DNA of 59,122 nucleotides from sequence record DRR378314_729; one strand, written 5' to 3'. Each line of letters begins with the position of its first letter. The first letter of the stretch is position 1. The translations under genes and the position numbers were made by a program. The notes below the pieces were generated by a model. The model made no database searches. It was given only the letters and a program-made list of their open reading frames with translations, and had not been told where the DNA came from. This document shows, piece after piece, positions 5,236-50,768 of this stretch.

Positions 5236-5921
5236 GCCTCTTCGATCAGTTGCGGCCCCTGATTGCGGACATTGCCGACTGCCGGATTGACCGGCCATGC
5301 GTGCATGTCCGCCGTCGGGAATGGTTCGTAGAGATACTCGACCTTGCGATTGTCCGCGTCCAGCCATGTCCGATAGTCTGACGGATGGAGGATCACCGGC
5401 ATACGCGTGTGCAGCCCTGCCATGAGGTCATTTGGCTTTGTAGTCAGGATGGTGAATGTGTCGATCTCCGATCCGTCGATCATGGCCCGGTCCCACAATC
5501 CGGCAAAACAGAACCAGCGACGATTGCGCAGCCCGATCGCATAAGGTTGTTTCTTCCCTTTTGGCCCCGTCCATTCGTAAAAGCCGCTCGCCGGAATCAG
5601 GCAGCGATGATGCCGGAACGGGCCACGAAATGTGTTGGAAGCTTCCAACCCTTCGCTGCGCGCATTGAAGGTGGAGAATTTCTTTTCACTGAGTGGTTTC
5701 TTCCACCAGCTGGGCACAAGCCCCCACATGGCTGGCGCCATCTGGATCGCATGGCGGGGAACATCCTCCCCTTCCGGGGCCATGCGTATGATGGGGGCAT
5801 ATTGTGTGGGCGCGATATTGTAGGCCGGCTCTGGCGGCTGAATGCCATTTGGATGGATCAGGTTCAGCGCGTTGTGGTATTCCTCCCACGAAACCCCATG
5901 ACGGAAAAAGCGACCACACAT
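5232..5921 (-). CDS. SOS response-associated peptidase (SRAP/HMCES/YedK) family
   Basis: N-terminal MCGRF (catalytic Cys2), YNIAPT, FNARSE, GFYEW, HTRMPVIL. Confidence 0.93.
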   Translation of the reverse strand: MCGRFFRHGVSWEEYHNALNLIHPNGIQPPEPAYNIAPTQYAPIIRMAPEGEDVPRHAIQMAPAMWGLVPSWWKKPLSEKKFSTFNARSEGLEASNTFRGPFRHHRCLIPASGFYEWTGPKGKKQPYAIGLRNRRWFCFAGLWDRAMIDGSEIDTFTILTTKPNDLMAGLHTRMPVILHPSDYRTWLDADNRKVEYLYEPFPTADMHAWPVNPAVGNVRNQGPQLIEEA

Positions 5922-9562: not shown

Positions 9563-11278
9563 TCAGGACGCCTGTGTAATCACCGATGGCGACGTCAATT
9601 CCTTGCACAATACGGCACGACCAATCAGAAACCCCTGAACCAGATCGCATTTGCGTGCGGCCAACTGCTCAAGCTGCCAACTTGTCTCGACGCCTTCGGC
9701 GCAGCTGATCAGGTTCATTTCCCGGCACATCTTCAGGCTCCCTGTCAGGACCTTCGGCAGGACACCGGAATCACTCTTCTTGCCTAGCAGGCTCTTGTCG
9801 AGCTTCACTTTCTTGAACGGCAACTCTTCCAGCAAGGAAAGAGACGAGTATCCCGTGCCAAAATCATCCAGAGCCAATGACACACCGGCATCGACAATCT
9901 TTCCGAGCACCTGCTTGCTGGTATCGATATTCCGGAAAAGGACGTTCTCGGTAATCTCCAGTTCAATGCGGGACGGCTCGACCTTGTGACGTCGTAGCAC
10001 GTTGAGGAAGAGATCCGAGAATTCCAGCGAGGTGAGCTGCGAGGGCGACACGTTGAAGGACAGGAAGCTCCGGCCATCGGGCAGCCATCGTAGAGCCTGA
10101 TTCAGCATCGACCAGAAGAAGCTGTCTATCAGCCCGAGACGCTCCACCGGAGGCATGAATTGCTTCGGCGATGGTTGCCGCTTCAAGCCACTGTTTGGCC
10201 AGCGTGCCAGGACTTCGTATCCGGCCACGGAATGTGACCGGAGATCCAGGATGGGCTGGACTGCCGGCTGGAAGCGGTTGTCCTTCACGGCGCTGATGAT
10301 TGTTTTGTCAAACTCCTGCGCGTCCATGTCTGACAAGTCCATACGGCGGTCGAAGACGGCGATCCCACCCCCTTCAGACTTTATACGGATCATTGCCTTG
10401 TCGGCGGCATACATCAGATTGACTTCATCAACAGCGTCATCGGGATAGGACGCAAGGCCAATTGAGGCACCAACCGAGACCAGCCCCAGATCGGTCTCGA
10501 CAGGAGAAACAATTGCACTCTGCGCTCGCGCTGCAATCTCGGAGGCATCGGCATCACAGATGATAAATGCAAACTCGTCTCCGCCCAGGCGGCAGGCCAG
10601 TCGGCACCCCTCAGCCTCGGACAGTCGCCGCGCCAGCTCTTTTAGCACATGATCGCCAACTGCGTGGCCATACCGGTCGTTCAGTGGCTTGAAACGGTCC
10701 AGATCGACCAGCGCGCAGGTGAAAGGCTGTTGTGCATGGATCAGTGCCTCGACTTCACGAATGAAGGCACGACGGTTCAGGATGCGGGTCAGAGGATCCG
10801 TATCGGCCAGTTGGCGAACCGTTTGCTCGGCGCGTTCGCGCTCGACTATCTCTGCCTTGAGATCAGAGAGCATGTTGGCATGTATTTCGGTAAGCGCATG
10901 AAAGACGCCGAGTGCATTCAGGCACCCTGCATATACACCGTCGTCATGCACGAGGATCAACCCGTTCGTCAGGAGATCTGACTTGTCTCGAATACTGCTG
11001 AAAACCGATGCCGTGTCATCGTTGAGTTCCAGGACAAGCGGGTTTCGGTCCAGAATCGCGGCCAACCCCCTCTTCTGATTCAGTGCGTACCCGTAGGGAT
11101 TGGATATGATGCGCTGAAACGCCTGAAGGGAAACAAACCCGTTCGGCCGACCGCGCCGGTCAACAACCGGACACAGCGTGGCCTCAGGATTACTAACGAA
11201 AAAAGCTGACAGCGCATCAAAGCTGTCATCCACCGACAAAGGCGGAAAATGCTTCCAGGACGTGGAGCGAAACTTCAT
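9563..11278 (-). CDS. CBS-like / GGDEF / EAL c-di-GMP metabolism protein
   Basis: DPLTRILNRR, DLDRFK, RLGGDEF; EVLARW, ELEITE, LDDFGTGYSS, AEGVET. N-terminal CBS-like segment (PVVDRRGRPNGFVS). Start at 11278 or 11302. Confidence 0.9.
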   Translation of the reverse strand: MKFRSTSWKHFPPLSVDDSFDALSAFFVSNPEATLCPVVDRRGRPNGFVSLQAFQRIISNPYGYALNQKRGLAAILDRNPLVLELNDDTASVFSSIRDKSDLLTNGLILVHDDGVYAGCLNALGVFHALTEIHANMLSDLKAEIVERERAEQTVRQLADTDPLTRILNRRAFIREVEALIHAQQPFTCALVDLDRFKPLNDRYGHAVGDHVLKELARRLSEAEGCRLACRLGGDEFAFIICDADASEIAARAQSAIVSPVETDLGLVSVGASIGLASYPDDAVDEVNLMYAADKAMIRIKSEGGGIAVFDRRMDLSDMDAQEFDKTIISAVKDNRFQPAVQPILDLRSHSVAGYEVLARWPNSGLKRQPSPKQFMPPVERLGLIDSFFWSMLNQALRWLPDGRSFLSFNVSPSQLTSLEFSDLFLNVLRRHKVEPSRIELEITENVLFRNIDTSKQVLGKIVDAGVSLALDDFGTGYSSLSLLEELPFKKVKLDKSLLGKKSDSGVLPKVLTGSLKMCREMNLISCAEGVETSWQLEQLAARKCDLVQGFLIGRAVLCKELTSPSVITQAS

Positions 11279-11414
11279 AATAAACCCATTTGCCCCACCC
11301 AAGGCACTCTGGGTATCGTGCTAACAGGACATTCTGAAAACTTGGTAACCAACAATGTTTACAGCAGGTTACAACGCATTGTTTTATGTGAATTTATTGT
11401 GACAGACGTTGCAC

Positions 11415-11963
11415 TCAGCGCGTGTCCGACGTTGGCACCCCAACAACCGATCTGCGCAGGACATCTGCAGAGACCTTCCCAGCGTCACGAGCAATAACGC
11501 TGAATGATGCGTCGGTTTCGAGTACAACCGTTTCGGCTTGCTCCACTTGCGTCAGTCCATGTTCTCTCAGGGCAGAGAGTATCTCGGATCGGGTAAGTCG
11601 CTCGTCGAGAATATTGTCGTCCAGATAGTTGCCCCGATACACCAGAAGCCGTGGGCTGGATTTGACCAGCTTTTCGACACCGATTGAGCGCGCGATCATG
11701 AAAGTCAATGCCCATTGTATGGTGAGCAAAGTCGCGATGGCCAGCAATGCTTCAAATACTGTCACCGAGTTGCTGGTAATACCCGCACCAGCAATAGACC
11801 CGAGCGCTACGGTGACGACCCAATCGAAATTATTCATCTGGGACGTGGACCGTTTCCCCGCCAATCGAATAAACACAATAATGGTGAAATAGATGGCGGG
11901 CGCCGCCAGAACGATCCTTACCAGGTCTTTCCAACCATCATAGAAGATTGCCGAAATATCCAT
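11415..11963 (-). CDS. DUF421 (YetF-like) membrane protein
   Basis: RLAGKRSTSQMNNFD, LRERHG-like LREHG segment, VVLETDASFSVI; three TM segments. Confidence 0.88.
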   Translation of the reverse strand: MDISAIFYDGWKDLVRIVLAAPAIYFTIIVFIRLAGKRSTSQMNNFDWVVTVALGSIAGAGITSNSVTVFEALLAIATLLTIQWALTFMIARSIGVEKLVKSSPRLLVYRGNYLDDNILDERLTRSEILSALREHGLTQVEQAETVVLETDASFSVIARDAGKVSADVLRRSVVGVPTSDTR

Positions 11964-12556
11964 CAGACCACACCCGAACCGATTTGATAGTCTATGGGCT
12001 TGTAAACAAAATTGTTGGACTCGCCGGCAGAACAGCTAGTCATGCCGATTATCAAATCCATGCAGGCTTCGAGAACGATCGATTGCCCCGCCTTGCTCAA
12101 GGGTGGCAGCACACTGATCTTTCCGGTGTCGGGGTCCATCGCCACATGCATGAAGATATTGAACGCAATGGGGATATCGTCTGGCCCAATACCGTATTCA
12201 GACAGAGCAGCTTCCAGGTTTTCCTGACATCCGCCTTGCGGATCTGCCTCATTGTAGAGCTTGCGAAATGTGTCCTTCGAACATGGCGTAAGCGTGAAGT
12301 CATGTCGCCCGACCTCGTCCTTTACGATCTTCAGCATGTCACGACTACGGTTTGAGTACAGCACATCACCAGTGGTAAGGAACATGCGCCCGGCATAGTC
12401 CAGCGAACGCCCGGAAGAGATGACTTCCTTTCGGTCATCGAGATTGTAGGCGACCAGATCACTGACCTGCTCGCCTTCCGGATCTGTCACGGTCAGGCGC
12501 TGGCCTTTGCGGAGGATGAAGGCTACGCCGGATTTCGGGGGAATGCGCTGGATCAT
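11963..12556 (-). CDS. DUF1989 urea-carboxylase-associated family protein (CgdA/CgdB-related)
   Basis: GQRLTVTDPEGEQVSDL, LYSNRSR, GRHDFTLTPC, GCQENL, FNIFM, TSCS. ATG 12556 overlaps the upstream stop (ATGA). Confidence 0.9.
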   Translation of the reverse strand: MIQRIPPKSGVAFILRKGQRLTVTDPEGEQVSDLVAYNLDDRKEVISSGRSLDYAGRMFLTTGDVLYSNRSRDMLKIVKDEVGRHDFTLTPCSKDTFRKLYNEADPQGGCQENLEAALSEYGIGPDDIPIAFNIFMHVAMDPDTGKISVLPPLSKAGQSIVLEACMDLIIGMTSCSAGESNNFVYKPIDYQIGSGVV

Positions 12557-13248
12557 TTGATGGGCTCCTGGGGCGTGAATGGGCATTTCCAGTCTGGTCC
12601 GACTTCGCGACCGGAATATTGCGCGGCTTCCGATCCACTGCCGAAGTCGGCCAGCATCGGATTGACGGACCCGGCAAGCGCTTCGTCACGCGCCCGAATG
12701 ATCTGTTTCATTTTCTCGAACCGGCCGTCCTGGCGAAGCCGCTCAAACTGCTCATGCGAGTTGAAGACGAGGGTTGGATACCGAAATCGTCGCGCGGGCC
12801 GCGAGGCATTCGGGTGCAGGCCAATCACAAAAAAGGCCTCTCCAAGCAATCCCATGGAAAAATGCGCAGACTGAGGGTCCCTGTCGGCGTTCTCCGCCCA
12901 TCCCCTGCCCTCCACCACATCAAGATTATGCAGGGATTGGAGACGGTTCCACAACGCGTGCTCGAATTCATCTTCCAGCAAGTCGTTTGGCCCGGTGAAT
13001 ATCGCGACGAACGACTGAACGACCGGGGAGTCGAAATCGAGCTGGTCGATGAACGTCTCCAGCGCCAATCGCAACTTGATATCACCAGCCGCGGAGTCGA
13101 TCTCCCCAAACTCGGCAATCATCAATTGATCCCGGACCATGGCGGATTTCGCACCAATACAAGGAAACTCGTCAGACTTCACGAATTTCCGAAACGCCTC
13201 GGTCGGCGTGACAGTCGCTTCCTGTCTATCCTTGAATGTGGTATTCAT
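12553..13248 (-). CDS. YqcI/YcgG family protein (DcsA/GntA-like heme-dependent guanidine N-hydroxylase family)
   Basis: FPCIGAKSA, LWNRLQSLH, DPQSAHFSM, FFVIGLHPNASRPARRF, VFNSHEQFE, QYSGR, WKCPF. Confidence 0.85.
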   Translation of the reverse strand: MNTTFKDRQEATVTPTEAFRKFVKSDEFPCIGAKSAMVRDQLMIAEFGEIDSAAGDIKLRLALETFIDQLDFDSPVVQSFVAIFTGPNDLLEDEFEHALWNRLQSLHNLDVVEGRGWAENADRDPQSAHFSMGLLGEAFFVIGLHPNASRPARRFRYPTLVFNSHEQFERLRQDGRFEKMKQIIRARDEALAGSVNPMLADFGSGSEAAQYSGREVGPDWKCPFTPQEPIK

Positions 13249-13279
13249 AGGTGTGTTCCTGAGTTGTTATTGCTCAAAG

Positions 13280-13305
13280 AACCTTTCGGAATGCGATGCG
13301 GTTCC
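13280..13305 (-). promoter_or_regulatory. EcfG/SigT-type general stress promoter for the YqcI/YcgG operon
   Basis: Minus strand GGAAC-CGCATCGCATTCCGAAA (17 nt)-GGTT, ending about 30 nt before ATG 13248. Confidence 0.7.
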
Positions 13306-13480
13306 CCAATTTTGAGTGGAAGATTGCAGACAACAATTCGAGAGACAGCCCGCCACCAAAAAAGCCTTCAAATTCCGGGAAGGCCTTCTTATTTATGTTA
13401 ATCCGCGATGACATTCATGCGGACAATACGGGACGACGCCGCTGCAAAGCAGGGCTAAACACCCAATACACCTGAATGCC

Positions 13481-13505
13481 GGAACGATCGCCGCGACGCG
13501 GGGTT
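13481..13505 (+). promoter_or_regulatory. EcfG/SigT-type promoter upstream of rpoH
   Basis: GGAAC-GATCGCCGCGACGCGG (16 nt)-GGTT, 25 nt before ATG 13531. Confidence 0.7.
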
Positions 13506-13530
13506 GGTCTGCAAAGGAGGAGATTTGACT

Positions 13531-14445
13531 ATGGCAAACAAGATTGCCGCCAGTACGAGCATGACCCTCAGCCCTGAACAGGGCCTGAGCCGCTACCTCA
13601 CGGAAATCCGCAAATTTCCGATGCTTGAGAAGAACGAGGAATTCATGCTTGCGCGTCAATGGCGTGAGCAGGAAGACACACAAGCAGCCGAAAAGATGGT
13701 GACCTCTCACCTGCGCCTCGTCGCGAAGATCGCGATGGGCTATCGCGGATATGGCCTGCCGATGGCCGAAGTTATCTCCGAAGGGAATGTCGGCCTGATG
13801 CAGGCCGTGAAGAAATTCGACCCTGATAAGGGGTTCCGCCTTGCAACATACGCCATGTGGTGGATCCGTGCCGCGATCCAGGAATACATTCTGCGTAGCT
13901 GGAGTCTGGTAAAACTGGGCACAACTGCCGCACAGAAGAAACTATTCTTCAACCTGCGTCGCCTGAAAGGCGAGATGCAGGCGCTTGACGAGGGCGACCT
14001 GAAGCCGGAACAGGCCAAGCTGATCGCCGAGAAGCTGAACGTGACCGAGAATGAGGTCTACTCGATGAACGGGCGGATGTCCGGTTCAGATGCGTCCCTG
14101 AACGTGCCGATGGGCACGGATGGCGATATGGAATGGCAGGATTGGCTGGCTGACGATGATCAGGGCCAGGCTGAAGAGTTCGCAGACAAACAGGAATTCA
14201 ATGCACGGATGGAATTGCTAACGTCCGCCATGGAAGACCTGAATGAGCGCGAACGCCACATTCTAACCGAGCGTCGTCTTTCGGAAGAGCCGAAGACACT
14301 TGAGGAATTGTCGGAAGTTTACAACGTATCCCGCGAACGTATTCGTCAGATCGAGGTGCGTGCGTTTGAGAAGTTGCAGAAGGCCATGAAACGCATGGCG
14401 AAAGAACAGGGGCTGGCATCAGCGTCTGCGGCCGGCGCAGCATAA
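13531..14445 (+). CDS. rpoH: RNA polymerase sigma-32 factor
   Basis: RpoH box QKKLFFNLR, SHLRLV, GFRLATYAMWWI, SRERIRQIE; GGAGG RBS before ATG 13531. Confidence 0.96.
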   Translation: MANKIAASTSMTLSPEQGLSRYLTEIRKFPMLEKNEEFMLARQWREQEDTQAAEKMVTSHLRLVAKIAMGYRGYGLPMAEVISEGNVGLMQAVKKFDPDKGFRLATYAMWWIRAAIQEYILRSWSLVKLGTTAAQKKLFFNLRRLKGEMQALDEGDLKPEQAKLIAEKLNVTENEVYSMNGRMSGSDASLNVPMGTDGDMEWQDWLADDDQGQAEEFADKQEFNARMELLTSAMEDLNERERHILTERRLSEEPKTLEELSEVYNVSRERIRQIEVRAFEKLQKAMKRMAKEQGLASASAAGAA

Positions 14446-50633: not shown

Positions 50634-50720
50634 GCGCTCTACTGAACCACCGACCTGCACACGACGCAATATTGTCATTTGCGCCCGCCAAGGAAATGTG
50701 AGACAGACGCGGCGGGCCAG

Positions 50721-50768
50721 GCGCCCCCAACGGCGCTCAGCCTATCTGTGAGGATAGGAGTAAAACAG

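Follow-up and report, generated by a model that had tools for sequence, protein, structure and literature searches.

A conserved YqcI/YcgG–DUF1989 gene pair as a candidate two-enzyme guanidino module with an EcfG-type promoter motif in Alphaproteobacteria

What does a YqcI/YcgG heme enzyme, of a family so far known only for tailoring antibiotics and toxins, do next to a single DUF1989 protein, behind a stress-type promoter motif and outside any biosynthetic gene cluster? The question is raised by a three-gene unit in DRR378314_729, a stretch of 59,122 nucleotides (nt) analysed at its full length and called the window below, which encodes a YqcI/YcgG protein, a DUF1989 protein and a small DUF421/YetF membrane protein. 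A sequence-only reading of this DNA had proposed a stress-induced system for the modification of guanidino compounds. Here we find that the conserved core is the YqcI–DUF1989 pair. Our preferred reading is a two-enzyme module for guanidino N-hydroxylation and C-N cleavage, with an EcfG-type promoter in Alphaproteobacteria; taken as a whole, we give it a probability of about one half. The protein families themselves are already known, and what is new is the constancy of the pairing, a DUF1989 clade of its own and the stress promoter.

The three minus-strand genes are tightly packed (Table 1). The YqcI stop overlaps the DUF1989 start in an ATGA at 12556-12553, and the DUF1989 stop overlaps the DUF421 start in a TGATG at 11965-11961. 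The longest open reading frame (ORF) of DUF1989 spans 11963-12586, and its homologues favour the ATG at 12556, giving a protein of 197 amino acids (aa). Both overlaps, and the GGAAC-N17-GGTT element about 30 nt upstream, had been described from the letters alone and were found as described, with 31 nt between the end of GGTT and the YqcI ATG (13248). The assignment to the three families was also borne out, with PF08892, PF09347 and PF04239 (together with PF20730) all matched above their gathering scores.

The pairing of the first two genes is strongly conserved. A profile of the YqcI subfamily was searched against a collection with one genome per species; at least 600 stretches matched, at least 584 of them with a gene for a relative, and the 80 best loci were retained. 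Their sources are Hyphomonadaceae, Hoeflea, Roseibium, Methylobacterium, many sphingomonads, Paracoccus and Acetobacteraceae, and also Lysobacteraceae, Woeseiaceae, Methylophaga, Nitrosomonas and one Acidobacteria metagenome-assembled genome (MAG). DUF1989 lies immediately downstream of YqcI on the same strand in 78 of these 80 loci. The two exceptions are L016, where YqcI is split into two alignment pieces and no DUF1989 is present, and L029 (Methylorubrum zatmanii). According to a start-codon heuristic, 54 of the 78 pairs have a YqcI stop that overlaps the DUF1989 start, and in 36 cases the overlap measures exactly 4 nt; the remaining pairs have gaps of 0-30 nt (16 pairs) or larger gaps (8 pairs). 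In a class sample of 301 evenly drawn alphaproteobacterial genomes, YqcI is present in 8 and DUF1989 adjoins it in 6; the two unpaired genomes are from a single genus, and their YqcI is of another type, lying once within a 4900-aa open frame. A phylum sample of 401 genomes yielded 23 over-cut-off YqcI genes in 22 genomes, and DUF1989 stands beside 21 of the 23, downstream in 20 and convergent in one, with none within 1.5 kb of the other two. No conserved third neighbour was found, the largest neighbour cluster comprising 9 of 81 loci. Representative neighbours include an aldehyde dehydrogenase, an HWE kinase, a CRP-type regulator, GGDEF-EAL proteins and a short-chain dehydrogenase/reductase, and the commonest Pfam family among 61 same-strand downstream ORFs is DUF421, with two cases; these tallies were repeated with Pfam, as the longest-ORF caller gave antisense artefacts in GC-rich loci. 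The conserved core is a two-gene module of YqcI and DUF1989, paired near-obligately across classes. It is not confined to EcfG-bearing bacteria, and gamma- and betaproteobacterial loci and the locus of the Acidobacteria MAG carry the pair without the promoter motif.

A few unusual arrangements were also recorded. The convergent DUF1989 (L104 in G573, a genome of the same family as G001, the nearest genome to the window) is the sole such arrangement among the examined pairs. Two YqcI proteins have other architectures, one lying within the 4900-aa frame (G231:C15:36089-36712) and one of 599 aa being fused to glycosyltransferase domains (P0123), and neither adjoins DUF1989. Only three fused YqcI–DUF1989 proteins were seen (P0009, P0105 and P0122). 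They are assembly singletons, one with a junction deletion and one with an odd C-terminus, and they may be assembly or frameshift artefacts, so they were not used as evidence.

The first enzyme of the pair carries the marks of a heme-thiolate protein. It matches PF08892 over profile positions 1-211 (E 4e-57, 193.8 bits against a cut-off of 27), and its AlphaFold2 (AF2) model has a mean confidence (pLDDT) of 88.6. At E <= 0.001 the model has five matches in the PDB, every one of them AglA (TM-score 0.73-0.75, 18% identity; TM 0.74 with E 1e-8), and a phmmer search of the window protein against PDB sequences gave no match. F28-P29-C30 is found unchanged in all 23 subfamily sequences compared, P29-C30 in 28 of 28; the equivalence of C30 to AglA Cys44 is drawn from the FPC motif and the fold rather than from a residue-level alignment. 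AglA Cys44 is the heme thiolate ligand (PMC12866846), and ChmN Cys47 plays the same part in the same thiolate-heme chemistry (bioRxiv 10.1101/2024.01.24.577118). In AglA, the arginine side chain of the substrate is sandwiched by Phe152 and Phe182, and Arg166 binds a heme propionate (PMC12866846). A weak profile alignment places F140 and F168 at the two phenylalanines, R153 at Arg166 and N163 at Gln177, all of them invariant in the subfamily, and it places His165 at Arg179. Guanidine N-oxygenation is the activity of all YqcI/YcgG members described as characterised (PMC12866846; bioRxiv 10.1101/2024.01.24.577118). From sequence and model, we read the window YqcI as a predicted heme-thiolate N-oxygenase for an alkyl-guanidine-like substrate unlike that of AglA.

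The second enzyme is a confident DUF1989 member (PF09347, E 7e-54, 182.4 bits against a cut-off of 27) that stays below the cut-offs of every named subfamily model with which it was compared. It reaches 105.7 of 284.7 bits for UAAP2 and 83.8 of 205.95 bits for UAAP1 (the CgdA/CgdB families, TIGR03424/TIGR03425), and 66.7 bits against a cut-off of 1100 for trimethylamine N-oxide demethylase (Tdm, NF053776). None of the 28 YqcI-linked DUF1989 proteins examined reaches the cut-off of any of these three models. A maximum-likelihood tree was built from 53 sequences, among which the linked proteins had been picked via the YqcI search and not by DUF1989 similarity; in it, these 28 form one clade (support 97/96, branch length 1.38), and the tandem pairs (100/100), Tdm-like proteins and two lone kinds fall elsewhere. 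DUF1989 as such is not rare, being present in 79 of the 301 class-sample genomes, mostly as tandem pairs, Tdm-like proteins of about 800 aa or other lone forms, and a look-up of the window protein in the ESM Atlas returned generic DUF1989 clusters only. D33, H85, D86, C92, C110 and C175 are invariant in all 28 linked sequences. The three cysteines align to cysteines of 3oru and Tdm, and three cysteines form the zinc site of DUF1989 (PMC12560246). The linked DUF1989 is a predicted zinc-binding enzyme of its own, undescribed subfamily. One ORF of this family (L037:6681-7724) is 347 aa by the heuristic, about 150 aa above the rest, reflecting either a C-terminal extension or a missed stop.

The promoter motif gains its weight from conservation. 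Within the window alone, five GGAAC-N17/18-GTT matches were counted where 2.7 are expected, a number attained in 14 of 100 shuffles and hence not significant; the window motif counts as significant because it is conserved at the same place in orthologous loci. Of 61 alphaproteobacterial loci, 30 have GGAAC-N16/17-[CG]GTT in the 200 nt upstream of YqcI, as against 0 of 17 non-alphaproteobacterial loci (classes taken from record titles, with 2 of the 80 loci of uncertain class and 2 having almost no upstream sequence); among 6800 control windows drawn from these loci, 29 contain it (0.43%). A looser pattern, GGAAC-N17/18-GT, is found in 46 of the 61 alphaproteobacterial loci against 2.0% of controls, and a first, broader pattern had matched 35 of 80 loci against about one expected. 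In L003, an 85%-identical relative, the -35 and -10 blocks are kept and the spacer has diverged. Published EcfG motifs are GGAAC-N17-20-GTT, enriched within 100 bp of start codons and with GGTT variants among the targets (PMC6599016), and GGAAC-N16-CGTT with a flexible -10 box (PMC7083833), and the window element, less than 100 nt from its start codon, fits this consensus of the EcfG/NepR/PhyR regulon. The nearest genome (G001), used in place of the window's own assembly, has three matches over cut-off in a search with the NepR family. The conservation across alphaproteobacterial families upholds the EcfG-type reading of the element, and the module in Alphaproteobacteria lies behind a conserved motif that is predicted to be an EcfG-type general-stress promoter. 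The main texts of three EcfG regulon papers, whose regulon tables are in supplements, do not mention the module genes. All 4 metatranscriptome libraries considered (three studies) yielded contigs over parts of the operon, one of which, 1784 nt long, runs from 11278 to 13061 and includes sequence of all three genes. Because such libraries may include DNA, this is weak evidence for expression; the contigs show presence in RNA libraries and give no transcript start, strand, level or proof of a single transcript.

How could the two enzymes work together? We propose a self-contained two-enzyme module, spread among Proteobacteria and accompanied in the lineage of the window by a YetF/DUF421 protein. 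The thiolate-ligated heme enzyme would N-hydroxylate an alkyl or cyclic guanidino (possibly amidino) compound, using O2 and a housekeeping ferredoxin system. The DUF1989 enzyme would then cleave a C-N bond of the N-hydroxyguanidine product, by deimination or hydrolysis, much as carboxyguanidine deiminase acts on N-carboxyguanidine. In this way the pair would convert a guanidino compound during stress and the reactive intermediate would not be released. Guanidino N-hydroxylation followed by C-N cleavage is plausible by family analogy. Of the characterised DUF1989 activities, one is on an N-substituted guanidine and one on an N-O compound, which makes the two-step reading plausible, since an N-hydroxyguanidine unites both features. 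A comparable sequence of steps operates in D-cycloserine synthesis, where the YqcI/YcgG enzyme DcsA hydroxylates a guanidino nitrogen and DcsB hydrolytically cleaves the N-hydroxyguanidine to hydroxyurea. The hydrolase of that step is of the arginase family, not DUF1989, and the pathway is encoded in an antibiotic gene cluster. With GntA, AglA, ChmN and DcsA, the window YqcI shares the Pfam family, the AglA-like sandwich fold, the FPC cysteine, the phenylalanine pair and the heme-propionate arginine; it differs from them in lying outside a biosynthetic cluster, in its pairing with DUF1989 and in its general-stress promoter motif. Where YqcI/YcgG proteins have so far been only antibiotic or toxin tailoring enzymes, a large subfamily here has a fixed partner, apparent stress control and no cluster. 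The pair suggests that nitrogen-rich compounds undergo a two-step reaction not yet described and, in Alphaproteobacteria, would give the general stress response a candidate metabolic function. For enzymologists, it offers a defined two-protein system in which to look for a new DUF1989 reaction and for the physiological substrate of "housekeeping" YqcI enzymes. The earlier statement that no function had been described for the module agrees with the literature found on DUF1989, YqcI/YcgG, carboxyguanidine deiminase and EcfG/GGAAC, from which the pair is absent.

Several points weigh against this preferred reading. The order of the two steps is assumed, neither the YqcI nor the DUF1989 subfamily has a biochemically characterised member, and the module encodes no redox partner. 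The YqcI/YcgG family has more than 4,000 members (bioRxiv 10.1101/2024.01.24.577118), of which six are described as characterised, all acting on arginine derivatives in natural-product pathways (PMC12866846), so the label of guanidine N-oxygenase may not generalise. The profile search aligns the window YqcI to AglA weakly (E 0.008), with the cysteine region outside the alignment, and Arg179, which fixes the substrate backbone in AglA, is replaced by His165, so the substrate should differ from that of AglA. Fifteen of the 61 alphaproteobacterial loci lack even the loosest motif; all 17 non-alphaproteobacterial loci lack it as well, so stress control is specific to the lineage and not intrinsic to the module. 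The counts overstate independence, a few genera (Methylobacterium, sphingomonads) having supplied many of the loci.

An N-oxide route is the first alternative to be weighed. Here the heme enzyme would N-oxygenate an amine, and DUF1989 would cleave the N-oxide or N-hydroxy product in the manner of Tdm, by oxidative N-dealkylation. Among DUF1989 proteins in the PDB copy searched, Tdm alone combines a solved structure with a named activity, its substrate is an N-O compound (PMC12560246), and the window DUF1989 aligns to its DUF1989 domain (E 1e-12), including the aspartate D33, the RHD motif and the three cysteines. Against this, the window protein has only 197 aa, without the GcvT domain and without the N-terminal DUF1989-like domain of Tdm, and it scores far below the Tdm cut-off given above. 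The proposed Fe-binding histidine of Tdm corresponds to Q107, a position that is variable in the subfamily, the tree keeps the linked clade apart from the Tdm-like clade, and the characterised YqcI/YcgG enzymes all use guanidines. We regard this route as unlikely.

A further variant concerns the product. As a general-stress effector, the module would deliberately make a bioactive N-oxygenated compound from arginine or a related guanidine, with hydroxyurea, hydroxylamine or a donor of nitric oxide (NO) or nitroxyl (HNO) as candidates. Replication would be slowed by this compound, or the compound would serve as a signal for protection, and this would be a route to such species independent of nitric oxide synthase in bacteria that lack this enzyme. 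We consider this variant quite doubtful.

The two proteins might also be unrelated stress proteins under a shared promoter, their adjacency reflecting co-regulation without a pathway. EcfG regulons do hold many unrelated genes of unknown function (PMC6599016), and neither a redox partner nor a transporter accompanies the pair consistently. Yet order and adjacency are kept in 78 of the 80 loci, over Alpha-, Gamma- and Betaproteobacteria and the Acidobacteria MAG, and the pairing persists in lineages without the EcfG motif. The frequent stop/start overlaps and the single clade of linked DUF1989 proteins likewise make mere co-regulation very unlikely.

Highly improbable in our view is nitrogen assimilation from guanidine or urea, in which DUF1989 would act like the carboxyguanidine deiminase CgdAB. 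The best NCBIfam matches of the window DUF1989 are indeed the urea-amidolyase-associated UAAP2 and UAAP1, and it shares with CgdAB, whose substrate is an N-substituted guanidine, the DUF1989 fold family and the cysteine triad. However, both scores remain far below their cut-offs, and CgdAB is a tandem heteromer from a clade of its own, compared with a single gene here. G001 holds one DUF1989 and has no urea carboxylase (TIGR02712) over cut-off, in keeping with the lone DUF1989 and missing carboxylase first noted for the window. Urea carboxylase exceeds the cut-off in one of five module genomes, where a different replicon carries it next to a separate tandem pair of DUF1989 genes. The YqcI–DUF1989 pair is conserved without a carboxylase at its side. 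Guanidine riboswitches often, though not always, control CgdAB; none had been recognised in the sequence-only reading, and neither of two Rfam scans found one: the serC leader is the sole match in the window at the gathering threshold, and a permissive scan of 11000-14000 returned nothing relevant.

A fragment of a natural-product pathway, such as the guanitoxin synthesis implied by the NCBI name 'GntA', is extremely improbable: the window YqcI does pass the 'GntA' equivalog model NF041366 (271.2 bits against a cut-off of 145) and the characterised family members described are all biosynthetic (PMC12866846), but the same model is passed by all 28 DUF1989-linked YqcI proteins from diverse Proteobacteria, whose neighbourhoods have only DUF1989 in common. 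A guanitoxin-type cluster was not seen around these genes, with DUF1989 as the sole conserved neighbour, although the gnt genes were not searched for by name one by one. The absence of a biosynthetic cluster from the window locus, as first reported, holds up in the same way, since neighbours vary except for DUF1989, and rpoH, a GGDEF-EAL gene and zapE flank the unit in the window and G001. NCBI records bearing the guanitoxin name (P0008, P0022, P0026 and others) come from many marine and soil bacteria. The naming of DUF1989-linked YqcI proteins as 'GntA' is probably a systematic over-annotation, and it probably overstates the genomic potential for a neurotoxin.

The third gene of the unit encodes a DUF421 protein that matches both PF20730, the N-terminal transmembrane domain (36.9 bits), and PF04239 (36.8 bits), each with E 3e-9 and above its cut-off; phmmer found no match to it among PDB sequences. 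Directly downstream of the pair, DUF421 is found in the window, G001, L003, L025 (Qipengyuania) and L112, and it lies nearby on the opposite strand in L064, L077 and L117; among the 78 pair-bearing loci, the directly downstream position was counted in 2. In the class sample DUF421 is rare (24 matches in 21 of 301 genomes), and it occurs anywhere in the genome in 4 of 6 module genomes compared with 17 of 295 others. As related genomes are not independent samples, we treat DUF421 as a recurrent, facultative accessory outside the core. The proposed role as membrane partner needs correction: the gene is coupled in the window and recurs near the pair, but it is not a constant partner. Where present, its product may be an optional helper in transport or membrane protection. 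The YetF/DUF421 family is linked to stress resistance (PMC10126465, PMC12548441), and the Bacillus members, which are spore inner-membrane proteins, share both Pfam domains with the window protein; here, by contrast, the host is a non-sporulating proteobacterium and translation of the gene is coupled to that of two enzymes.

Table 1 Positions of the operon, its promoter-like element and other features in the window.
Feature	Position	Strand	Details
YqcI/YcgG gene	12553-13248	minus	231 aa; PF08892
Single DUF1989 gene	11963-12556	minus	197 aa; PF09347
DUF421/YetF small membrane-protein gene	11415-11963	minus	182 aa; PF20730 and PF04239
EcfG-type promoter-like element	13280-13305	minus	GGAAC 13305-13301, 17 nt, GGTT 13283-13280
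rpoH	13531-14445	plus, divergent from the operon	TIGR02392, 365 bits against a cut-off of 323
GGDEF-EAL gene	9563-11302	minus	downstream of DUF421 after about 110 nt; Pfam
serC leader (RF00517)	50710-50762	plus	50.4 bits

Between DUF421 and the GGDEF-EAL gene no terminator was predicted in a scan of 11000-13700, so the 3' end of the operon is not fixed; sigma-70 promoter and terminator scans of the same region performed no better than on shuffled sequence. The GGDEF-EAL gene also follows DUF421 in L003 and G001, and GGDEF/EAL genes and HWE kinases recur close to the YqcI–DUF1989 pair in a few other loci.

On the other side of the operon, rpoH has its own GGAAC-N17-GTT at 13481-13505 on the plus strand, about 25 nt before its ATG. 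L003 keeps this element (5695-5719 on the minus strand), so EcfG may control sigma-32 here as well. The footprint is only weak evidence, since the DNA around it is highly conserved. An antisense-strand GGAAC motif was seen in the YqcI upstream region of 9 of the 80 loci. In the loci of Lysobacteraceae type (L019, L026, L038, L058, L075 and L080) no GGAAC was found, and a common TAGGGTG-like element lies a few nt before the start, possibly as part of another kind of promoter whose leader is very short.

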